A stretch of DNA of 64,000 nucleotides from an uncultured Clostridia bacterium (lineage in GTDB: Bacteria; Bacillota; Clostridia; TANB77; CAG-508), in assembly GCA_934157035.1 (NCBI GenBank), contig CAKPHG010000004.1, positions 53,594 through 117,593 on the forward strand, written 5' to 3'. The notes below the pieces were generated by a model. The model was not told where the DNA came from and made no database searches. It was given only the letters and a program-made list of their open reading frames with translations. Positions 39,920 through 62,496 of this stretch are shown piece after piece. The translations under genes and the position numbers were made by a program. The first letter of the stretch is position 1; the number at the start of each line of letters is the position of its first letter.

Positions 39920-40696
39920 CTATTTTATAACTTGTTTCATACATCCATAAACTAAACCTACCCATGTTGAAGAGTTTGGACAAAATCTCTTTTGCACTCC
40001 TGATAATGTCTTACCAGAATAATAAGATCCTCCCTCTGTTAAGTATCTATTGTGTAATAATTTAGCTGCAGCTTCTAAACCTTCTGCTGGTGTTGAATAT
40101 CTAATTAATTTTCCTCCAGACATCATACTAATATAATTACAAGTATTTCTATGGTTAGATGCTATACTCCATCCTGATTCAGCTGCAATTAATCCACAAA
40201 AGAATATTTCGTTTATTTCATATTCTTCACATATATCATATATTGCTTCAGCATTTTCTGCAAAAAATCCTGAATAGTCTACTTTCATATTAGCCATTAA
40301 ATTTATAAAGTCTTCTTTTGATATTCCGCATCTTTTACTTAAATCCATGTCTCTTGAAATTGTTATTTCTTCTATAGATATATACTTTGGTTGTTCCTCT
40401 TGTATAGTTTCTTTTGTTGTTCTTTCTTCTGAAAATCTTGTTGTAGTTTCTACATTTCTTTCTTGAGTAATAGTTTGTACACTTTGAGCAACAACTAACT
40501 GTTCTTCTACTCCATTATTATCTTCTTTCGTATCTACTTTTGCTAATTTTACATTGTTTAATGTAAATAATTGAATATTAGCTCCTAATGTTACTAGTAT
40601 TAAAAATATTGCTATAAAATTTTTTACTTTCAGGGAACTTTCTCCATTATTTTTCATTTTTTCAACATCCTTTCTTAGTGACTTTTTTTCAGCCAC
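39920..40696 (-). CDS. membrane-anchored glucosaminidase-like (GH73/FlgJ-type) domain protein
   Basis: N-terminal TM; C-terminal GLIAAESGWS...N motif resembling GH73 N-acetylglucosaminidases. Confidence 0.55.
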   Translation of the reverse strand: MAEKKSLRKDVEKMKNNGESSLKVKNFIAIFLILVTLGANIQLFTLNNVKLAKVDTKEDNNGVEEQLVVAQSVQTITQERNVETTTRFSEERTTKETIQEEQPKYISIEEITISRDMDLSKRCGISKEDFINLMANMKVDYSGFFAENAEAIYDICEEYEINEIFFCGLIAAESGWSIASNHRNTCNYISMMSGGKLIRYSTPAEGLEAAAKLLHNRYLTEGGSYYSGKTLSGVQKRFCPNSSTWVGLVYGCMKQVIK

Positions 40697-40834
40697 CTCT
40701 TTATTATACCACCTTTTAGCATATTCGTCAAATTTTGTATATTTTTATTCTACTTAATCCTATATTTTAGTTTAAAAAAAGAACATAAATTATAATTATA
40801 ATTTATGTTCTTTTTCATTTCTTATTCCATCTTA

Positions 40835-41545
40835 TTAATCTTCAGGAATAATTTTAATTTTTTTAACACCAAGAATTTTTTCCCATCTTCTAGCGTTTTC
40901 TCCTCCTTTTCCTATGACGAGTCCCAATATTCCTTTTGGTACAATCAAATACAAGTAACCTTCTTTAGCAACTTTGTTCATATCAACAACAACTGAATAT
41001 CCAGTAATAAATCCACTGGCATAATAACAAACTAAAACTTTAAAATGATCTTTGTTCATTTCAATGTCTTCGTTTCCATTGATTGTTTCTGCTGTAATTC
41101 TAAAATCTGAAACTATTTTGATTACTCCTCCATTCAAAGTTTCTTTCAAACTTCTGTACCTTCCTACTTCTTTTAAAATAGCTTTGTATTTTCTTATTTC
41201 CTCGTTTACAAAACCTCTTGTCTTATTTGCCATACTTATTGAATCTTTCGTAGGAATTTTTACGGTATATTCTTTTACATACCGATATTCTCCCTGCATA
41301 AAAGCATAAAATGGCAATGTAACCTCGGTTTCTTCATAAGTAGACGGATTCCAAAATTTGCATTGGTCTTCTACTATTGAGTAAGGTATTTTATTGTTTC
41401 TTAATATTCCTTCATACTCAATAGGTACCTTAGGCAACACTGGATTATAATCATCCATTATTATTTTGCACCGTCTATTTTCAAAGACAACGCATTTGTT
41501 GGGTAATTCCCCTATACATGTAGTTCTCATTTTAACTGTTTGCAT
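40835..41545 (-). CDS. hypothetical protein with C-terminal KH-like domain
   Basis: GGAGG RBS before ATG 41545; C-terminal VPKGILGLVIGKGGENARRWEKILGV resembles a KH (GXXG) motif. Confidence 0.5.
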   Translation of the reverse strand: MQTVKMRTTCIGELPNKCVVFENRRCKIIMDDYNPVLPKVPIEYEGILRNNKIPYSIVEDQCKFWNPSTYEETEVTLPFYAFMQGEYRYVKEYTVKIPTKDSISMANKTRGFVNEEIRKYKAILKEVGRYRSLKETLNGGVIKIVSDFRITAETINGNEDIEMNKDHFKVLVCYYASGFITGYSVVVDMNKVAKEGYLYLIVPKGILGLVIGKGGENARRWEKILGVKKIKIIPED

Positions 41546-41681
41546 ATTCTTCCTCCTTTTACATGTAGATGTTAAATTTTTCAATGTGCTTTATAATACT
41601 TCCTATTTTATCACATTATGTTCACTTTTGCAACAAAAAGAAAGAAAAGCACTAAAAATAGTTGCTCTTCTTTCTTTAATT

Positions 41682-44791: not shown

Positions 44792-44865
<74 letters not shown>

Positions 44866-44985: not shown

Positions 44986-46397
44986 TTAATTATTATCTGT
45001 TAATTTATTAAACAAATCCTTAAATATTTCGTTTGCATTTAAATAATTAACAAATTTAATTCTATGCCTGTTTTCGGTTAGTTTAAAAGTATTATCAGTA
45101 TTTATAAGTGGACAACTAACATCCATTGTATTAAACCAATTTTTATTTATCATATATGCTATTACACTAATATCCCATAGTGGCCATCTTTTAGTAGGAC
45201 CATAGGCTCTATTATAAAATCTATAGCATAAATAATCACATAATTCGTTTTTGCCTTTTAATTCACTTTCTAATTCGTATATTGATGTCATTAGATTCGA
45301 TGTTATAGGAGAACAAGGCATAACAGTAAGTTTAACTTTCGATTCAAAAACTACTTTTACCGCTTCTACATCTTGATCAAAATTGAAATCTTTATTAGGT
45401 CCAAATAAAAAATTACTTCCTAACCATATAATTTCTATCTTATCAACAATATCTGGGTTAGATTTTAATGCTAATGCTATATTTGTTAAACACCCTATTG
45501 CTAATATATATGTTTTTTTATTTTTGTTAGCAATTTCAATTATTTTATTAATGGCTGAATTTTTTTCATTATATCCATTTTTTAAATAATCACGGGAACC
45601 TTTATATATAAGTGATTTATCCTTTAATCCTAATAAATCAAATACTTTACATGCTTCATTGTAACTGGCATCTATAGAATCAGAAACTGTTCCTTGCCAT
45701 TTTTCATGTCTAAAAGGTGCTATTGTTATAGCGTCAATGTTGAATATTTCTTTGCTTTTTAGTAAATAAGATAATGCGAATTGGTCATCTGCTTCATTAT
45801 ATGTATCTGTATTCAAAATTACATTATATTTTTTTCACAGATTAAACTATATATTTCTTTCCATCCGTTTACTATTGGAATATTTAAATTATATTTCTCA
45901 TTATATCTTGTTTTCATTAAAAAACATTCTATTCCTGCGTTTAATATGTATTTACATTTATCTGCTTCATCATCAAACATAATATCAATACTATTTTCAA
46001 TACATTCTGGACTTTTATCTCTGCTTTTTGTAAATACTAATTTATCATATTTTATACCTTTTTCATTTAACCAATTTATAGTTACTAATTCATGGTTTTT
46101 AAAAAAATAATTTGATCTGTGTGTTATTAAAAATATCTCATTTTCTTCATATAATTTATTAATATATTTCTTAGCTCCTTCTATTAAATCAAATTTTTCA
46201 GCCATTCTATCCATATTATTGCGGATAAAATCTTCTATTTCCTCTGGGCTCCAATCAAACATTCCTTCAGTAATGTGTTTAGCTTTTTTGTTTATAATTC
46301 CTTTATTTCTTTTATTTTTATCTTCTTTTTCAAATTCTTCTAAAAATGTTTTATCTAAATCTGCTATTACATTATCAATATCTATTCCAATTCTCAT
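44986..46397 (-). pseudogene. 5'(3')-deoxyribonucleotidase-nucleoside hydrolase fusion gene interrupted by a -1/+1 frameshift in an A7 tract (ORFs 45819..46397 and 44986..45816)
   Basis: Upstream ORF = HAD dNT (MRIGIDIDNV...). Downstream ORF = IU-nucleoside hydrolase starting in mid-motif (NTDTYNEADDQFAL). The intact paralog 54834..56264 reads through the same junction (…KNYKKEKFNVILDTDTYNECDD). The shifted frame across plus 45829..45835 (T7) reconstructs KKYNVILNTDTYNE. Confidence 0.7.
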
Positions 46398-46579
46398 ATA
46401 ACAACCTCCAGTATAAAATTAAGTTTTAATCTATAAAAATTATACATTATATTACAATTTTTTTCCACACTTCCTTGAAAAAATCAGCATGAGTATTTCT
46501 ATATAGGTAATTTAGCAAATAAAATACCACTCCTAATACTTCAAACACATAATACAACTTATTTTAAACCTCTTTTTTA

Positions 46580-46608
46580 TTTACATAATAGCCAAAATGT
46601 GGTATAAT
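46580..46608 (+). promoter_or_regulatory. promoter TTTACA-17-TGgTATAAT (extended -10) for the GC-rich orphan gene
   Basis: TTTACA 46580..46585, TATAAT 46603..46608, TG at -15/-14. Shares AAAATGTGGTAyAAT with promoters at 61191..61219 and 60742..60770. Confidence 0.5.
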
Positions 46609-46695
46609 ATTTTTGGTTGATTTCTCAGAAAATGAGGAAAAATTTCTTAGTTAGTATTTGTTGCATTATAATTAAAGCATAAGGAGGAAAACAAT

Positions 46696-47748
46696 ATGCA
46701 ATATCAAGAAAGCGTCAGAATTCAAAGATGTGGTAACCGTGCAGGAGATACCTATGGACTGATTGAACTTCAACATATGGCAGATCCTAAATCAGTAATT
46801 GTGTCTCTTTGTGGGCAAAGGCTTTATCCGAAAAAATTCAATATCTTCGGTTGGCCGATATTTACAAAGGAAATCTGTGACCTTTTTGACTGGAAAGAGA
46901 ACTCTCTTGAAAGAATATATGGAAAAGATTACAGACTTACAGCATTAGTTACGTATGATAGTGCAAATGTCCACATCGACCCGCATGCAGTTAATTCTTT
47001 GGATGGAATTAAAAACGGAATCAAAGACCTTGAGTCTTTGAATAGATTACTCAGAGATAGAGTGATTTATGATAAGCTTTTAGGTAGGGGCAAACTCAAC
47101 AAGTATGTTATTTTTGGTAGATATAGCCTTGATGAATTTGCCCAGGTATGGACACTGGGTGAGCAATATGAAATCCCTGAAATGCCTATCGTTTGTACTC
47201 AAATCGGGTTCTATAGAGCTTACAATAAAGTAAAGCCTGATGCACTTGTATCTTGGGAAGGCAGATGCACTATTCCTTCTGAAGATGATAGTTGTCCTTG
47301 GTGTACCAAAAAATTTACTATTGAAGATGTAAGAAAAGGAAGATTTGACACTATCAATGGTAAAGTCGCCCATAGCGAATGTGCAAAGCAGTATGAACAT
47401 GAAAGGGAGATTAACAAAATTATTCATCGAATTATGGAATTTATCTATGAAGATGGATTAACCTTTGAACTTCTTCCTAATGGCTATTGTAGTCAACCGT
47501 GTTATGCTCATAAGCCTTGGTTTTTGTGTCATACTCCTGATGGTGACATCGAAATCGGCTGGAGAAAAAGAGTTATTTCTATTGAATGGAAAGATAATTT
47601 CAAACCTTTCGATATGAGTATTTTTGACAGCGAAGATGTTACTAAATGGGAGCGTGGCATTCACGCGTGGGGAAATGACAAAGCATATGAGTATATTAAA
47701 AAGGTAAAGGAATTTGTTAATCCTAAACCTGAAGAGAAAAAATCGTAA
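46696..47748 (+). CDS. hypothetical 350-aa protein, compositionally foreign (~40 % GC), with CxxC...HxxC putative zinc-binding element
   Basis: Strong AAGGAGG RBS; GC visibly higher than flanks; CPWC(x29)HSEC and further conserved Cys/His; no family recognised; own GC-rich hairpin terminator. Confidence 0.6.
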   Translation: MQYQESVRIQRCGNRAGDTYGLIELQHMADPKSVIVSLCGQRLYPKKFNIFGWPIFTKEICDLFDWKENSLERIYGKDYRLTALVTYDSANVHIDPHAVNSLDGIKNGIKDLESLNRLLRDRVIYDKLLGRGKLNKYVIFGRYSLDEFAQVWTLGEQYEIPEMPIVCTQIGFYRAYNKVKPDALVSWEGRCTIPSEDDSCPWCTKKFTIEDVRKGRFDTINGKVAHSECAKQYEHEREINKIIHRIMEFIYEDGLTFELLPNGYCSQPCYAHKPWFLCHTPDGDIEIGWRKRVISIEWKDNFKPFDMSIFDSEDVTKWERGIHAWGNDKAYEYIKKVKEFVNPKPEEKKS

Positions 47749-47775
47749 AAGCAACATTACTAAGAAATTCAGCTG

Positions 47776-47820
47776 AAAAAGGCCACTAGATAATTCTAGT
47801 GGCCTTGACCTTTGGTTTTA
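47776..47820 (+). terminator. GC-rich hairpin terminator (GGCCACTAGA-taat-TCTAGTGGCC)
   Basis: Perfect 10-bp GC-rich stem at 47781..47804 directly after the stop of 46696..47748. Confidence 0.55.
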
Positions 47821-47868
47821 TAATGTTATACCATTTAAATATAATATATTTTTATATTTTCTATTTTT

Positions 47869-48420
47869 TCACCTATTTTCATAATTTCGAATGCTAATTT
47901 CTTTTATCATTTCTCCTGGATAATCATATAATGCTAATCTATCAAATTCTAAATAGAATGGCTTAAAACTATCCTTAATTGTGTTTTTCAATTCTAAAAT
48001 CTTATCATAATCTTTATCTATATGTAGAGTTAAATGAAACGTAAATTTCTCTGGATTATATTTTTCTTTTGGAAATTTATTAAAAAAGATTCTTTGTAAT
48101 TCTTTTATTTTCTCATTATCTTCTATTGCTAAATATAAAACAAAACTCTCATTTCTACATTTCATTATCTTAACATCATTTACTTTAACCTTTATCTTAC
48201 CCATCTCTATTTTTTGAGCTATATTTATTATTTCATTTTCATTTTCTTTGTTAGTTGCAAAAATAGTAAAGTGATATGGTAAATTATCAATATTGTATCT
48301 ATTCTCATCAATACCATAAGGAACTTTGCAAGTCTTTATTTGTATATTGTTCATTAACTTTTCTATCTTATTTAATTCTGTTTTATTCATAAAACTTATC
48401 ATCGTAATTCTCTTACTCAT
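47869..48420 (-). CDS. 2H phosphoesterase superfamily protein (LigT/ThpR-like 2'-5' RNA ligase / cyclic phosphodiesterase)
   Basis: Two HxT/S motifs: PYHFTIFAT and FHLTLHID, spaced ~80 aa apart in a ~180-aa protein. Confidence 0.65.
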   Translation of the reverse strand: MSKRITMISFMNKTELNKIEKLMNNIQIKTCKVPYGIDENRYNIDNLPYHFTIFATNKENENEIINIAQKIEMGKIKVKVNDVKIMKCRNESFVLYLAIEDNEKIKELQRIFFNKFPKEKYNPEKFTFHLTLHIDKDYDKILELKNTIKDSFKPFYLEFDRLALYDYPGEMIKEISIRNYENR

Positions 48421-48795
48421 TTAACACCACTACTTTCACCAACTTTATTTATATTAGTTTCTTTCTATATTTTTAATAAAAAAATCATCTTCTTCATTAA
48501 AGTGTATATCTATATCAAGACTCTTTTCATGCTTAGATGCAGCACTAGTTAGTTTATCTTTTATATTTTAAAGTATCGTCTATATATTCCTATCTTTATG
48601 TATATTATCCAAACTTTTACTAATTGTCAATAGTTTTAGTATTGCTCTTTTATGAAAAATGTTTATCATATAAATGAAATACATTATTTCCTATATTTAC
48701 TAATTAGTGAAGGAATTATCCTCTCACTTTTGGTTTTAACATATATAACAAGAAAACATAAAAAACGACAATGCCGATTAAGCATTGTCGTTTTT

Positions 48796-49996
48796 TTATG
48801 GTTTTTCTAGTTTATACATTATTCTAGCATATATAGGTATAGAAATAGTAACTATCAATAATAATAATTTAAAGTATATAACATTATTCAACAAGCCTAC
48901 CAATAGCATTAGTATAAATCCTATTATTCTTCCTATTTCCATAAAACCTTCTGTGAAAGTATGATATTCTACTAACCATTTTTCTATATTATTTTCTTTA
49001 ACTGCATCATCTGATTTAATTTTAAACATAACTTCTAAAATATATACAGTTATGCTATATGTAAAATTATAAATTATTAATGTTGTTTTGCTTATATTTA
49101 ATATTAATCCTAATACACCTAACACTACTAATGTAGCACAAAAAATCAATAATCTTTTTGCATATTTTTTTTTGATATAATTTATTAAATAAATATAGTG
49201 ATATCATAGAAAATATAGAGAATATAGTTGTTAATATTCCAAAATTAAATGATGTTTTAAAAGTCATAATTGTTATTATAACTACTAATACTCGTATTGT
49301 ATCCATCATAATTCCATATAAAAAGGCTAATTTATAAACTTTATTTATATTCTCTTTTTGTTTGCTAGATAAACTGGTTGTATATTTTTTTAAACTATAT
49401 TTTTGAATTTTATCGTCAATAACAAATTTGTTAGTATCTATTTGTAATGACATTATTATTTGGAATAAAGTTAATACAAATATATATATTGCTATGTTTC
49501 CAAAAGATGTTAATTCTATAGAGGTTCCTAATATTATAGGAACTAATATATTGATAAATTTACTTAAAATTCTTTTTGTTGTCATATATTTTTTTCGGTT
49601 TTCATTATCGACTATTTGTGTATTCATTACATCATGTGTTGACTAGTATAAAGCTTCTGCAATGCCATAAAAGATTGCAAAAATTATAAAATATTGACTT
49701 ATTTTATCTTTGAACAATACTATTAATAATATATAAATCGATTTGATTATAATACCAAATCGATAAATTGAAACTTTTTTTTTAGGTTTGCTTTTGATTA
49801 TATTACCTAATAAAATACTTCCTACACCTAATAGTAAATATAAAATTATATAAAATGTTGAAACTTGTATTATATTTTCATTAGAAATTTGTAAAAAATA
49901 TGCTACTAAAAAAGTTTCGCCAAATAAATTTATAATACCGTTGGTTAGGTCACATGCCATTAATGACTTTGCACTTCTATCTAATTTAGTTTTCAT
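48796..49996 (-). pseudogene. MFS transporter pseudogene broken into three frames (49643..49996, 49067..49627, 48796..49149); paralog of 25778..27100
   Basis: Fragments align consecutively to the intact MFS (e.g. KKVSIYRFGIIIKSIYILLIVLFKDKI vs KIKLYRFGTIIKALYIFMIIVMGDKI); frames switch and overlap. Confidence 0.7.
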
Positions 49997-54833: not shown

Positions 54834-56264
54834 TTACTCTCCTAATTTTTCAAATAAATCATTATAAACACTATTTGCATCTATATAAGTTACCATTGTT
54901 ATATTATGCCTATTAGTTGTTATTTTATATGATGTATCTTCTTTTATATTTGGACAATTTATATCTTTACTTGTAAACCATTTTTTATTTATCATATAAG
55001 CAATTACAGAAATATCCCATATAATTCTTCTTTCTTGATTTCCATGATAGCTATCGTTATAAAATCTACTTATTAAATAGTTGCATAGTTCACTTTTATC
55101 TTTCAAGTGATGATTTAATTCATATATTGATGTTCGTAAATTAGATGCTACATTTTTGCAAGGTATTACTGTTAATTTTACTTTAGACTCAAATACTGTT
55201 CTTACTGCTTCAACATCTTGTCTAAAATTGAATTCTCTATTATTATCTTGTAATAAGCTATGTCCGCCTAGCCAAATTACTTCTATTTTTTCAATTATTT
55301 TAGGCTCTTTCTTTATTGCTAGCGCAATATTCGTAATTGCCCCAACTGCTAATATATATGTTTTTTCATTTTTTAATGCTATTTCAATTATTTTATTAAC
55401 CGCTTCATTTTCTTCATTATATCCATTTTGCAAATAATCTGTTGAACCTTTAAATACTTTATCTGTTGTATCAAAATTTAACCAATTACATATTTTTAAT
55501 ATTTCATTATAGCTTAATTCTTGGCTTTCCTCAGTAGTCACATTTTTTACTTTATGCGAAAATGGTGCAACTGTAATTGCTTCTATATTAAATACATCTT
55601 GTGATTTTAACATATATGAAAGTGCAAATTGATCGTCACATTCGTTATATGTATCTGTATCTAAAATTACATTGAACTTTTCTTTTTTATAATTTTTAAT
55701 GTACTCATATATTTCTTTCCAATCTTTAACTCTAGTTAAGTTTTCTTCTTCTCTATTGTAAGGCTTGTCCTTTATAAGTGTAGTTATTCCGCTTTCTACA
55801 CAATTTTTACAAATGCTAATTGAATCATCTATCATTACTTCTATATTATTTTCAATACATTTTTTAGATTTTTGCATTTTGTCACGAGCATCTGTAAAAA
55901 TTAGTTTATCATAATATATATTATTTTCTTGTAGCCATTCTTTTGTCATATTATAAGGATCTGAATAATCTCCATTATCTCTTCCAGTAATTATATATAT
56001 GTTATGACCATCTTCTTTTAGTTTATCTATATATTCTTTTGCTCCTTCAATTACTTTTAAGTTTTTAACGATTCTTTCTATATTTTCTTTATAAAATGTT
56101 TCATCTTCCTCTTTGCTCCAGTCAAACATACCATTTCTGATATATTTAGCATTTGGATTTATTATTCCACTATTTCTTAATTCTTTATCATGTTCTATAT
56201 ATTCCTTTAATAGTTCTTCATCAAAATTTGAAATAACGTTATCTATATCTATTCCTATGTTCAT
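54834..56264 (-). CDS. intact fusion: N-terminal HAD 5'(3')-deoxyribonucleotidase + C-terminal inosine-uridine-type nucleoside hydrolase
   Basis: N-term MNIGIDIDNV (HAD motif I), NT5C-like body; C-term ILDTDTYNECDDQFAL (nucleoside hydrolase DxDxxxDD Ca2+ motif) and IUNH-like remainder. 3 nt from next gene (operon). Confidence 0.8.
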   Translation of the reverse strand: MNIGIDIDNVISNFDEELLKEYIEHDKELRNSGIINPNAKYIRNGMFDWSKEEDETFYKENIERIVKNLKVIEGAKEYIDKLKEDGHNIYIITGRDNGDYSDPYNMTKEWLQENNIYYDKLIFTDARDKMQKSKKCIENNIEVMIDDSISICKNCVESGITTLIKDKPYNREEENLTRVKDWKEIYEYIKNYKKEKFNVILDTDTYNECDDQFALSYMLKSQDVFNIEAITVAPFSHKVKNVTTEESQELSYNEILKICNWLNFDTTDKVFKGSTDYLQNGYNEENEAVNKIIEIALKNEKTYILAVGAITNIALAIKKEPKIIEKIEVIWLGGHSLLQDNNREFNFRQDVEAVRTVFESKVKLTVIPCKNVASNLRTSIYELNHHLKDKSELCNYLISRFYNDSYHGNQERRIIWDISVIAYMINKKWFTSKDINCPNIKEDTSYKITTNRHNITMVTYIDANSVYNDLFEKLGE

Positions 56265-57286: not shown

Positions 57287-57360
<74 letters not shown>

Positions 57361-59882: not shown

Positions 59883-59965
59883 GCTGATGTGGCGGAACTG
59901 GCAGACGCACTGGACTCAAAATCCAGCGGGAAACCATGTGGGTTCGAGTCCCACCATCAGCACCA
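59883..59965 (+). tRNA. tRNA-Leu (anticodon CAA)
   Basis: GCTGATG acceptor, GGCGGAACTGGCAGACGC D-arm, anticodon loop CUCAAAA, long variable arm, TTCGAGT T-loop, CCA encoded; terminator hairpin at 59998..60030. Confidence 0.85.
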
Positions 59966-60168
59966 ATGACATTTTTGTTCGAACTACATATACAAAAATC
60001 AATCATTAAAATGGTTGATTTTTTTGTTTTTAAAAAATTATATGTTTTGTCAGTGTGTATTGCCTTGTAGCGCCCATAAGTTATGATAGTATGTCATACT
60101 TAAACAAATAGAGTGTCCTAAAATTGGACACTCTATTTACCTCTGGCTTATTGCTAGAGATGAAACGA

Positions 60169-60678
60169 TTACTGAAATAACTCTTTAAACTCTTCTTCTG
60201 TCATTCCGACAGGTAATTTTGAATCGCTCGTCGGGTACTCTGTGATTGGCTGTGCTACCCCATTTGTATCATCTTTTGCTTGGTATAAGCGAACGATAGA
60301 TACATGGAATCCCGCGTTGAATTCAGCGTTGAATGTGCTGTTCATTGCTATGGCTCCATCAATGATTTCAAAGGCCACAACCTTCTTAAGATGCTCTTTC
60401 GGAATCTGCCGAATCACTTCGCCTACGCTAGGCTTAAAGAAACCATAGTATCCATAACCATGAAGCATTTTTCTGTCTTCTAATACTGACAGCTTGGAAA
60501 AATCAACTTTGTCTGCATAATCTGAGGGCTCATTAAGCCATGTATATGCACTACCAGTTAATTCATCAGCGGACAATCCTCTGAGATAGGTATCATGTCC
60601 GACGATGGGTTTGATGGTTGCGTACCAGCGAGCGATTTCCTCATTGCTCATTTTAGGAATTTCAAATTTCCGTTCCAT
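60169..60678 (-). CDS. hypothetical 169-aa protein, compositionally foreign (~42 % GC)
   Basis: AAGGAGG RBS; GC-rich relative to flanks; own promoter (60742..60770, TTGAAA-17-TATACT) and hairpin terminator (60107..60140); no family recognised. Confidence 0.55.
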   Translation of the reverse strand: MERKFEIPKMSNEEIARWYATIKPIVGHDTYLRGLSADELTGSAYTWLNEPSDYADKVDFSKLSVLEDRKMLHGYGYYGFFKPSVGEVIRQIPKEHLKKVVAFEIIDGAIAMNSTFNAEFNAGFHVSIVRLYQAKDDTNGVAQPITEYPTSDSKLPVGMTEEEFKELFQ

Positions 60679-61190
60679 ATTTTACCTCCTTGCAATCGCA
60701 AATGTTAATTTACTACTGATATTCTTGTGAACATCAATAATAGTATACCTTATTTTACATAATATTTCAACTTATTTATAATATTTTCCAAATAGTATTA
60801 CATTATAATAAAAATATGTTATAATTTTATTAACTTGATCGATATTTGTATCAATAGTTATGAGAGACCAAAAGTTGTAGATAATTACTTCGACGGCACC
60901 AAAGGATAATATCGTCGCACCAGACGAGAAAAACGATTAAATCGACTGTAAAAGGTCGATTTTTTTCGTACCTAAGTATTAAAATTTTCGGAAAGATGTG
61001 ATATTATGTTAAACACAATCAAGAAACAAATCAATATTAGTAAAGAACTAAATTTTTAAATCTCCTTAACTATAAACATTTACTTATGACATCTGCACAA
61101 GTAATGGAACTAACTGAAAAAGAACAAAATATTTTTGTATTTGAAGTATTATATAATATTTACAATAGCATGAAAGAAATTTTTTGAAAG

Positions 61191-61219
61191 TTGCAATTTT
61201 ATGTAAAATGTGGTACAAT
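61191..61219 (+). promoter_or_regulatory. promoter TTGCAA-17-TGgTACAAT for 61366..61800
   Basis: TTGCAA 61191..61196, TACAAT 61214..61219, TG extension; shares ATGTAAAATGTGGTAyAAT core with the other GC-rich cassettes. Confidence 0.5.
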
Positions 61220-61365
61220 AAATATGTAAAAAGTTTTTCTTTTAAATTGAGAATATTTTCTCGATTTATTTGCTACATTATAGGTGGCAAGAAATCAAGA
61301 GTATCTCATTGAAGGGAAAATAGTAAAACAAAAACAATAAAAACAATTTACAGGAGGATTTTACT

Positions 61366-61800
61366 ATGAAAGCATTTGAAACACGGAAAGCATCTGTTAA
61401 GCCACAGTATGATTCAGCAATGAAAGAAATTAGCCAGGCAATGAATTGGGGATGGAAAAGTACCCATGTAGGTAATGGAACTCTGTACCCTGAAGTTGCA
61501 GAAATGATTGCTAAGGACGGTTTTGATATCAAAATTGTCAAAAGAGCTGATGACACTATGTCATATAATGAGATTTCTTGGGAAAATGCAGAAGAAGGTA
61601 AGGAGGGAACTATTACTTATGTAGATGAAACTCAGCTTAAGCTTGATCCTGCAGATATCCTTGATCCTGCAGATATCCTTGATCCTGCAGATATCTTTGT
61701 AAGAATTCTTGGACTCAAAAGAGAGGAAGCTACTGAGTCAAAAGAAGACGAACATCCAAACAATGAAGAAAATAAAACCGATTCTGAAGCCGAAGAATAA
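61366..61800 (+). CDS. hypothetical 144-aa acidic protein, compositionally foreign, containing a 3x DPADIL tandem repeat
   Basis: AGGAGG RBS; higher GC than flanks; internal 3 x 18-nt tandem repeat; strong hairpin terminator 61822..61860. Confidence 0.55.
   Translation: MKAFETRKASVKPQYDSAMKEISQAMNWGWKSTHVGNGTLYPEVAEMIAKDGFDIKIVKRADDTMSYNEISWENAEEGKEGTITYVDETQLKLDPADILDPADILDPADIFVRILGLKREEATESKEDEHPNNEENKTDSEAEE
61645..61698 (+). repeat. 3 x 18-nt tandem direct repeat (GATCCTGCAGATATCCTT) within CDS, encoding DPADIL x3
   Basis: Units at 61645..61662, 61663..61680, 61681..61698 (last with one substitution). Confidence 0.9.
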
Positions 61801-62109
61801 GGCGAACACAATGTGAAACTCTTGGAGAGAGCTAGTATCAAACTAGTTCTCTCTTTTTTTATCATTTTATTAAAAACACTTTTTTTAATTATATGTTAAA
61901 ATGTATATATAGTCGATAATCGTAAAGGTTTCAAGTGTGGAAGTTAGTAAATATCAAATTAATTAGCCTTGCAGAGCATACTAGTTATATAAAAACTTAA
62001 CCTGAAAAAGCGAAAAAAACTTGAAAAATCGTCAAACTTCTGATATCATTACAATGTTAACCAGTAAAATTAAAAAAGCAAAACTTTGAATAAGGAGGTG
62101 CTTAATCAA

Positions 62110-62418
62110 ATGTATGAAATTTGTAAGTACGAGAACATCAAACTGGAAGAAGCAATGACAATGGACCTCACTCAAAGAGTTCGGCTATGGGTTCTTCAAG
62201 GTTTCTCTGTTCAAGCTAATGACATTCCAAAGAAAGCTAATGTTCAAGCAACTTATGTCTATCAGTCCTCTGAAGGTCATATTTCTCTGATGATTAAGTG
62301 GACTATTGAGGGAGATTTTAGCCTCTATTTTGGTATTGTTGATGAATTCATCACTTTAGAGGAGCTAAAAGACAAATTTCCCAAACTTTTTGAGTTTGAA
62401 GGAAATTTGTATGCCTAA
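62110..62418 (+). CDS. hypothetical ~100-aa protein, compositionally foreign
   Basis: AAGGAGG at 62092..62098 with ATG 62110 (ORF track's 62086 is a TTG inside the RBS); higher GC than flanks; bidirectional hairpin terminator 62437..62466. Confidence 0.5.
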   Translation: MYEICKYENIKLEEAMTMDLTQRVRLWVLQGFSVQANDIPKKANVQATYVYQSSEGHISLMIKWTIEGDFSLYFGIVDEFITLEELKDKFPKLFEFEGNLYA

Positions 62419-62496
62419 TTGAACACAAAAAGTCTCTTTTTGAAAACACAGATAGAATATTTTCTATCTGTGTTTTTCATATTTAATATTCATTTT

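Follow-up and report, generated by a model that had tools for sequence, protein, structure and literature searches.

Moron-type or autonomous cargo cassettes, in which a gene travels with its own promoter and terminator, and single-gene anti-phage candidates are the closest described systems for the unit analyzed here. Lytic jumbo phages carry counter-defense and host-takeover genes more commonly than defense genes. For bacterial candidates, the PDC entries of PADLOC are predicted phage defense candidates, without validation as systems (PMC11514479). Our subject is a 64,000-nt stretch of DNA from an uncultured Clostridia bacterium (GenBank assembly GCA_934157035.1, contig CAKPHG010000004.1, positions 53,594 to 117,593), called the window, whose own numbering is used throughout. 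It holds an intact open reading frame (ORF) of 350 amino acids (aa) at 46696..47748 (+), which an initial annotation had described as such and had read, together with a convergent LigT-like neighbor, as a horizontally acquired cassette with a candidate defense role. Judged from sequence comparison, the DNA from 46523 to 47857 is very probably a horizontally acquired one-gene cassette, made up of promoter, 5′ untranslated region (UTR), ribosome-binding site (RBS), the 350-aa ORF, and terminator, and encoding a member of an undescribed, phage-rooted family.

This conclusion is carried by the boundaries of the acquired DNA. The compared loci are labeled by L-numbers, and L020 to L023 are the four closest to the window cassette. 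In blastn comparisons, the window was 96, 88, 81, and 88% identical at the nucleotide level to L020, L021, L022, and L023, respectively, and the homology spanned only 46523/46580 to 47807/47857, with unrelated flanks. Against L020, positions 46523-47857 were homologous at 96.1%, so that the acquired insert in the window measures 1.33 kb. An alignment of the four species of clade A, the window's clade within the family, showed that conservation starts exactly at the -35 box and stops just past the terminator hairpin. Homology between the window and L020 reaches ~57 nt farther left of the promoter and ~50 nt farther right of the terminator, and these two stretches are the 3′ ends of both L020 neighbors. 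On the left, a fossil at 46529-46552 encodes TPNTSNT*, and the 103-aa ORF ahead of the L020 cassette ends in IPNTSNI*. On the right, the encoded YKNILYLNGITL* is identical to the C terminus of an intact 749-aa PDC-S46 protein adjoining the cassette in L020. The acquired DNA extends to 47857, which leaves 11 nt before the stop codon of the LigT-like gene.

Horizontal acquisition of the 350-aa gene is indicated by the abrupt limits of homology and by the fossil remains of foreign gene ends, and the proposal of the initial annotation is borne out on this point. Because the stubs match the 3′ ends of the L020 neighbors, the window copy is a remnant cut from an L020-type cargo region; the L020 arrangement, with its intact genes, is the ancestral one. 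The parts of the unit are the following.

46523..46579 (+): left edge of the acquired DNA, homologous to L020 alone, holding the fossil 3′ end at 46529-46552.
46580..46608 (+): predicted cassette promoter, with -35 box TTTACA (46580-46585), a 17-nt spacer, and extended -10 box TGnTATAAT (46600-46608); 11/12 positions match.
46616..46695 (+): conserved 5′ UTR of ~80 nt, with a small hairpin CUCAgaaaaUGAG, the 11-nt element AATTTCTTAGT at 46641-46651, and the RBS.
46696..47748 (+): the 350-aa ORF.
47759..47769 (+): 3′ UTR element ACTAAGAAATT, exact complement of 46641-46651.
47779..47806 (+): terminator hairpin with a perfect 12-bp stem, a 4-nt loop, and A/T runs on both sides (fold z -4.9).
47818..47856 (-): fossil 3′ end of the PDC-S46 (AAA_13) candidate defense gene, its last 12 codons.

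In L020 (contig CALXME010000022.1, 23.9 kb), the gene order is tRNA-Thr, large serine recombinase, Mob_Pre relaxase, the 103-aa ORF, the cassette, and the convergent 749-aa AAA_13 gene. Profile matches to these neighbors were Resolvase and Recombinase (E values of 1e-34 and 7e-22), Mob_Pre (9e-14), and AAA_13, and the 749-aa protein is a full-length match to PADLOC PDC-S46 (E value of 6e-198). The same recombinase and relaxase pair adjoins the family gene in opposite orientation at L035, a clade-B locus (41% identical). We refer to the L020-type element as a putative integrative mobilizable element. The recombinase and relaxase that lie directly upstream of the L020 cassette, with the tRNA-Thr beyond, are both missing from the window, and the window copy is thus a remnant and not the element itself. 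No terminal repeats or target duplications were found at the true boundaries of the cassette, and transposon-type ends were ruled out on these grounds.

Within the window's species, the cassette appears to be fixed at its site. The exact 350-aa protein was found on 22 human-gut metagenome contigs, all collinear with the window; all 23 contigs carrying the exact LigT also carried the family gene in collinear position, with no empty site among them. Scanning species-representative genomes recovered 29 further loci, all from uncultured gut "Clostridia bacterium" metagenome-assembled genomes (MAGs) or CAG:921/CAG:575 genomes. Family pairs at 60 to 93% protein identity had no common flanking ORF within ±4 kb, and only pairs at 97% or higher had one, a pattern suggesting that the Clostridial family gene relocates between genomes as a one-gene unit. 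The tRNAs near family loci were of varied identity, and a common tRNA attachment site was rejected for this reason. The family was absent from 72,556 plasmids, and its full-length form was essentially absent from IMG/VR.

Relocation as a one-gene unit, and with it the scattered positions of the family, would also be expected of a self-mobilizing selfish gene, whose product would be a new type of homing endonuclease or transposase acting on the cassette that encodes it. The zinc knuckle and basic hairpin of the product (see below) are compatible with such a gene, as are the free-standing small ORFs of the family in jumbo phages, a typical homing endonuclease habitat, and an 11-nt inverted repeat that brackets the ORF in clade A. 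We consider this highly improbable, since the 350-aa protein contained no recognizable fold or motif of homing endonucleases or transposases (HNH, GIY-YIG, LAGLIDADG, PD-(D/E)XK, DDE, HUH, or serine and tyrosine recombinases), the inverted repeat lies inside the transcript and away from the repeat-free boundaries, the window holds a single copy at a site fixed in the species, and the fossil neighbor ends show passive carriage of a larger fragment.

Decay of the family gene was also observed. L048 (5900-7200) holds a copy with two in-frame stops, a ~60-aa deletion spanning the zinc knuckle, and a frameshift, and L029 holds an intact gene at the same site, with flanks that are 81 to 89% identical at the nucleotide level; this comparison indicates that the family gene is dispensable. 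In clade A, the copy in L023/L007 (JAFQSS010000004.1) is without the promoter and approximately the first 70 to 100 codons, and was called as an ORF of 249 aa starting with TTG; a response-regulator gene lies upstream, and the downstream flank and a nearby tRNA-Gly are common with L021. The dN/dS ratio was 0.13 to 0.40 for the whole gene and 0.02 to 0.08 for its C-terminal module (C-module), values that point to purifying selection on the 350-aa gene. Between the window and L020, the middle domain accumulated 15.5 nonsynonymous and 1.5 synonymous changes (Fisher p of 0.0016 versus the rest of the gene).

The composition of the gene is anomalous, to a smaller extent than initially estimated (~40 versus ~25% G+C). 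The ORF has 36.7% G+C versus 26.9% in the window, the highest value of all 1,053-nt sliding windows (z 3.0), and its third-position G+C (GC3) is 0.296 versus a native 0.139 ± 0.024 (48 other window ORFs; z 6.5). However, GC3 of the family gene exceeded that of its neighbors in 27/27 loci (mean of +0.11) and that of every single neighbor in 17/27, so that the anomaly is a property of the family and alone does not date the transfer. The excess extended to the copy within the L020 element, to long-resident copies, and to pairs with vertical inheritance, and clade-A GC3 stays at 0.28 to 0.30 despite dS values of up to ~1, with no sign of amelioration. A higher-GC reservoir or selection on synonymous sites could account for it.

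The expression signals reported for the ORF, a strong promoter, an RBS, and a GC-rich hairpin terminator, were all located. The gene is the sole long plus-strand gene within a long run of minus-strand genes, and its predicted promoter is of the sigma-A type and near consensus. The promoter had been called native-style; this does not apply to its origin, as the conserved promoter travels with the gene. The RBS, AAGGAGG at 46681-46687, lies 8 nt upstream of the ATG and was found in every family member compared. With A/T runs on both sides, the terminator may act bidirectionally; its hairpin shows a compensatory change in L023 (GGGC...GCCC), and a metagenome scan with the terminator signature returned nothing. 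Rfam covariance models run against 44-50 kb scored tRNA-Gly alone at E ≤ 1, with no match in the 5′ UTR, which also folded no better than shuffled sequence (z -0.27). These two results ruled out a riboswitch or leader within the long spacer upstream of the ORF.

The 11-nt elements of the two UTRs pair exactly with each other, and an added TGTTGC/GCAACA match extends the complementarity to ~17 nt. The predicted UTR-UTR duplex far exceeds shuffles in all four clade-A members (z -3.8 to -5.6) and not in clade B, and in L022 both sides have changed (T>G, T>C) and the duplex is longer. This complementarity may represent pairing of the mRNA ends or a vestigial inverted repeat; as a family-wide trait it was ruled out, being limited to the window's clade.

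Homology searches identified 139 close homologs and at least 1,852 representatives (50%-identity clusters) at E ≤ 1e-3. The C-module alone occurs as "hypothetical" ORFs of 109 to 136 aa in Caulobacter CcrBL9-type (gp445 in CcrBL9) and Xanthomonas jumbo phages, Xylella phage Salvo, and a 595-kb phage; it was present in 19 of 50,697 records, 16 of these larger than 200 kb. Phage-like contigs (276 and 325 kb) carried forms of ~170 aa and ~250 aa, and a short form was also found on a 38-kb viral contig (uncultivated virus genome; UViG) among PolA, a PD-(D/E)XK nuclease, methyltransferases, and an SNF2 helicase. Short forms thus reside mostly in jumbo phages, in early or replication-region gene blocks. 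Relationships of this kind place the 350-aa protein in an undescribed, phage-rooted superfamily, of which gut Clostridia appear to carry an enlarged chromosomal version. At L070, a signature of a diversity-generating retroelement (bAvd and reverse transcriptase; L070:17252-18410) lies 6 kb downstream of the family member P0015, and a Bro-N gene lies 2.3 kb upstream of it, which suggests that this neighborhood is mobile or phage-derived.

AlphaFold2 (AF2) models were confident, with a predicted local distance difference test (pLDDT) score of 92.8 for the whole protein and 91.9 for residues 190-350. The models, the alignment, and the substitution counts divide the protein as follows.

46696..46866 (+): residues 1-57, beta-rich N-terminal domain, from the secondary structure of the model.
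46867..47265 (+): residues 58-190, alpha/beta middle domain, the fastest-evolving part, from secondary structure and substitution counts.
47266..47445 (+): residues 191-250, zinc-knuckle-like element (C200, C203, H226, C229) leading into a long helix (227-250).
47446..47745 (+): residues 251-350, conserved C-terminal alpha+beta module, from alignment and model.

Residues 1 to ~95 are specific to the Clostridial chromosomal branch, and the shorter forms match the profile from ~96 on. The putative zinc-binding element noted initially, CPWC (C200, C203) with HSEC (H226, C229), is present, and all four residues are invariant in 42 homologs; matches to zinc-finger profiles were weak and sub-threshold. 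The alpha+beta architecture of the C-module takes in residues 251-342, and its signature is PNGY..PW..HT.DG.I.IGWRKRVISIEW..EDVTKW..IHAW..KAYEY. A second Cys/His cluster lies within the C-module at residues 265-279 (47488-47532), where most members have Y-C-x3-C-C-x-H...F-H and clade A has Y-C-x3-C-Y-x-H...C-H, one Cys having apparently moved (C270Y and F278C); it may be a second, non-universal metal site.

That the protein belongs to no recognized family was upheld by all comparisons made. The 350-aa protein matched nothing in Pfam, PHROGs, or NCBIfam, and the isolated C-module and the phage homologs matched nothing in these three databases or in PADLOC. Remote-homology search and structure prediction likewise gave no family match: a PDB sequence search with the family profile returned nothing below an E value of 0.078, and Foldseek against BFVD returned nothing at E ≤ 1e-3. 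Among 705 C-module profile matches, essentially all were without a Pfam domain, and no fusion to a known domain was seen. A literature search for the C-module motif returned nothing.

The initial annotation had paired the 350-aa gene with its convergent neighbor, which we describe as follows.

47869..48420 (-): 2H phosphoesterase (LigT-like) with HFT and HLT motifs, 22.6% G+C, evidently native and outside the unit.

Its identification as a 2H phosphoesterase is correct. Like LigT/ThpR 2′,3′-cyclic phosphodiesterases, it has two HxT motifs, and it passes the Pfam gathering scores of 2_5_RNA_ligase2 (PF13563; 34.1 versus 27 bits) and LigT_PEase (PF02834; 33.4 versus 23.3 bits). Unlike them, it scores below the ThpR/LigT equivalog TIGR02258 of NCBIfam (24.5 bits versus a cut-off of 65.7), which marks it as a divergent 2H superfamily member and not a certified ThpR ortholog. 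If the two genes formed an acquired two-gene module, one product might, for example, make and the other cleave 2′,3′-cyclic or cyclic-oligonucleotide phosphodiesters. The genes are adjacent and convergent, have a potentially bidirectional terminator in common, and occur together in all 23 contigs of the species, except for the L006 variant. Outside the species, the association breaks down: no LigT homolog was found within ±4-8 kb of the family gene at any of 33 other loci (0/33), including relatives at 93, 83, and 77% identity. The native composition of LigT, the end of the acquired DNA ahead of its stop codon, and the presence of PDC-S46 as the ancestral neighbor at this position also speak against the pair. 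On the Hadza contig L006, a 2,004-bp deletion corresponding to window positions 47977-49980 has removed most of LigT and a transporter pseudogene and kept the cassette; contig coverage is low (4.5×), and an assembly artifact is possible. L006 as a LigT-less context was ruled out, the 2-kb deletion being derived. A LigT pair is thus hardly credible, and LigT is, on composition and distribution, a native bystander unrelated to the cassette. Adjacency to LigT and the GC anomaly were both misleading as evidence of a functional pair, which makes this locus a cautionary case.

For function, the explanation that we prefer combines the history of the cassette with a binding role in phage or mobile-element conflict, and we give it a probability of about 40%. 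The gene was very probably cargo excised from an L020-type element, with only the cassette and the stubs of both neighbors retained, and the copy is now fixed. Its product would be a highly expressed binding protein and not a recognizable enzyme, in which the zinc knuckle and the long helix present the extremely conserved alpha+beta module. An invariant basic beta-hairpin (W-R-K-R) and an invariant aromatic/His/acidic cluster would bind nucleic acid or a nucleotide ligand, a conserved protein partner being another possibility, and the fast-evolving middle domain would set target specificity. It might be a domesticated phage protein that shields whichever host or element carries it from phage infection, much as in superinfection exclusion or abortive infection, with a phage-associated target being sequestered or blocked. 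The candidate defense role proposed initially is plausible because the closest relative adjoins a PADLOC candidate on a recombinase/relaxase element; taken by itself, a defense-type role in such conflict is a tentative assignment, if anything slightly weaker than the explanation as a whole.

Several observations weigh against this explanation. A single close pair with few substitutions accounts for the high dN/dS of the middle domain, which was 0.17 to 0.34 in more distant pairs. PDC-S46 is a predicted candidate and not a validated system, and the 350-aa protein itself matched 0 families of PADLOC v2 at E ≤ 1. A search of 11.5 kb of L020 revealed no att repeats that would define the ends of the element. 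Most clade-B copies lie among housekeeping genes, without defense or mobile-element genes nearby, and the defense link comes mainly from L020. An unrecognized catalytic site would be an equally good reading of the many invariant polar residues (N, Y, H, T, K, E/D, RKR, H). Finally, given the gene habits of jumbo phages described above, the C-module may have had an ancestral role opposite to defense.

On that last point, the gene could be a counter-defense or establishment factor, a stoichiometric inhibitor or sponge directed at a host immune component or signaling nucleotide and carried as cargo beside the relaxase, where it would help the element, or a phage, to settle in new hosts, with the window copy as a leftover. 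The residence of short forms in early or replication gene blocks of lytic jumbo phages would suit such a factor, as would the position of the L020 gene downstream of Mob_Pre, the strong, constitutive-looking promoter, and the weak fold neighbors of the protein, among them AcrIIA11, PsiB, and an immunity protein; nucleotide binding would be in keeping with the conserved aromatic and basic residues. We nevertheless regard it as unlikely, since the family is missing from the plasmids searched, the window copy has outlived its element and appears fixed and under purifying selection, and clade-B copies are long resident among housekeeping genes, the last two of which fit a host-beneficial function better.

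The neighbors of the family also bear on a cellular role. Across loci, 123 neighbors matched 147 Pfam families, each no more than twice, and most were housekeeping genes. A few were strong single-model PADLOC matches (PDC-S05, PDC-S13, and a type I S subunit), which are no more than suggestive, as there is no background rate and single-model matches of this kind include housekeeping look-alikes. Housekeeping neighbors were often translation-related (aminoacyl-tRNA synthetases, pseudouridine synthases, SpoU, EngB, and tRNAs), and three clade-B loci each share one gene with the window neighborhood (NT5C-IUNH, MFS, and P-type ATPase). The family could thus represent a phage-descended, lineage-specific cellular protein of low-GC gut Clostridia, for instance a regulator that binds nucleic acid, or a factor associated with the nucleoid or with RNA. 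It would then take no part in conflict, and genome scrambling with occasional transfer would account for its scattered positions. Its wide occurrence in one gut Clostridia MAG clade (29 species representatives), the strong RBS in every member, and a GC3 excess that could reflect expression selection are all consistent with this. The dispensability seen in the L048 pseudogene and the L023 N-terminal truncation, the loss of synteny even at 85 to 93% identity, the two copies on a recombinase/relaxase element, and the nonsynonymous burst in the middle domain are not, and we hold a purely cellular role to be a shade less likely still than counter-defense.

The wider setting of the cassette gave no indication of an island. 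Two tRNA-Gly(tcc) genes, at 44792-44865 (+) and 57287-57360 (-), lie inverted to each other, and to that extent a tRNA-Gly-bracketed region exists; it does not qualify as an island, as no integrase was called in 36.7-57.7 kb, no att repeat was found, and composition is native apart from the cassette. The nearby pseudogenes were confirmed by strain comparison. An MFS transporter gene at 48796-49996 (-) is split into three overlapping or adjacent ORFs (117, 186, and 117 aa). L061-L064, which are other strains of the species, carry it intact with 399 aa, as do L025, L026, and L035; the window copy is thus a strain-specific pseudogene. At 44986-46397 (-), NT5C (192 aa) and IU_nuc_hydro (276 aa) ORFs are separate, whereas strains L002 and L060 have them fused as a single gene of 471 aa. 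A fused 476-aa NT5C-IU_nuc_hydro paralog (46 to 59% identity) lies 8.5 kb away at 54834-56264 (-), beside HD and His_Phos genes, and in L024 the family gene adjoins the ortholog of this paralog cluster. A 40-nt perfect palindrome at 40776-40815, detected as a blastn self-match between the ORFs at 39920-40696 and 40835-41584, is probably a bidirectional terminator.

A second GC-anomalous patch, ~59970-62450, lies directly 3′ of tRNA-Leu(caa) (59883-59965), and GC skew turns positive there. It is probably another small acquired islet and contains three ORFs.

60169-60678 (-): orphan ORF of 169 aa, 41.6% G+C, GC3 of 0.40, no Pfam match.
61366-61800 (+): orphan ORF of 144 aa with a threefold PADIL repeat, no Pfam match.
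62086-62418 (+): orphan ORF of 110 aa, no Pfam match.

The family is of broader relevance in that at least 1,852 clusters from phages and gut bacteria share a module without a database name or an explanatory solved structure, and the window provides a clean, minimal example with a traceable history as mobile-element cargo beside a defense candidate. Should the protein prove to act in defense or counter-defense, phage-bacteria conflict would gain a new fold and a new one-gene system, and a recurrent jumbo-phage gene would be annotated, including in phages of the genetically tractable Caulobacter. As a cellular protein that binds nucleic acid, it would instead clearly exemplify phage-gene domestication in an uncultured gut lineage. 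The most far-reaching form of the conflict proposal is possible, if doubtful: a new single-protein system of defense or counter-defense, built on an undescribed nucleic-acid- or nucleotide-binding "GWRKRV" fold that jumbo phages and gut Clostridia have in common, and carried as a bare cassette on small recombinase/relaxase elements, with GC-rich synonymous sites in AT-rich hosts.

Compared with known systems, the C-module most closely resembles the C-terminal "double-wing" domain (CTD) of T4 MotA and RWD/YjbR-like sandwiches, its best structural neighbors, with which it shares a helix, a 4- to 5-stranded antiparallel sheet, and a second helix; MotA-CTD binds DNA via its sheet, and the C-module carries the invariant basic hairpin. 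Resemblance to small inhibitors of the AcrIIA11, PsiB, and ArdA type is within the noise for this fold class, and the family differs from them in having no plasmid copies and in chromosomal copies that are three times larger and stably maintained. Like single-gene anti-phage or abortive infection (Abi)-type candidates (PADLOC PDC-S), the gene stands alone, is variably present, relocates, lies beside PDC-S46 in its closest relative, and combines a constrained core with a fast domain; unlike them, it has no PADLOC match and no recognizable effector (nuclease, NTPase, TIR, SIR2, or membrane-spanning), and most copies are outside obvious defense islands. With moron-type or autonomous cargo cassettes it has in common the promoter and terminator of its own, an atypical composition, carriage as cargo on the L020 recombinase/relaxase element, and a single position between unrelated genes, and it departs from them in that the window copy lies outside any element, flanked by neighbor stubs, and in a protein family not known from such cassettes. 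The kind of unit, a mobile cargo or conflict cassette, is therefore a known one, and the protein family that it carries is itself undescribed.

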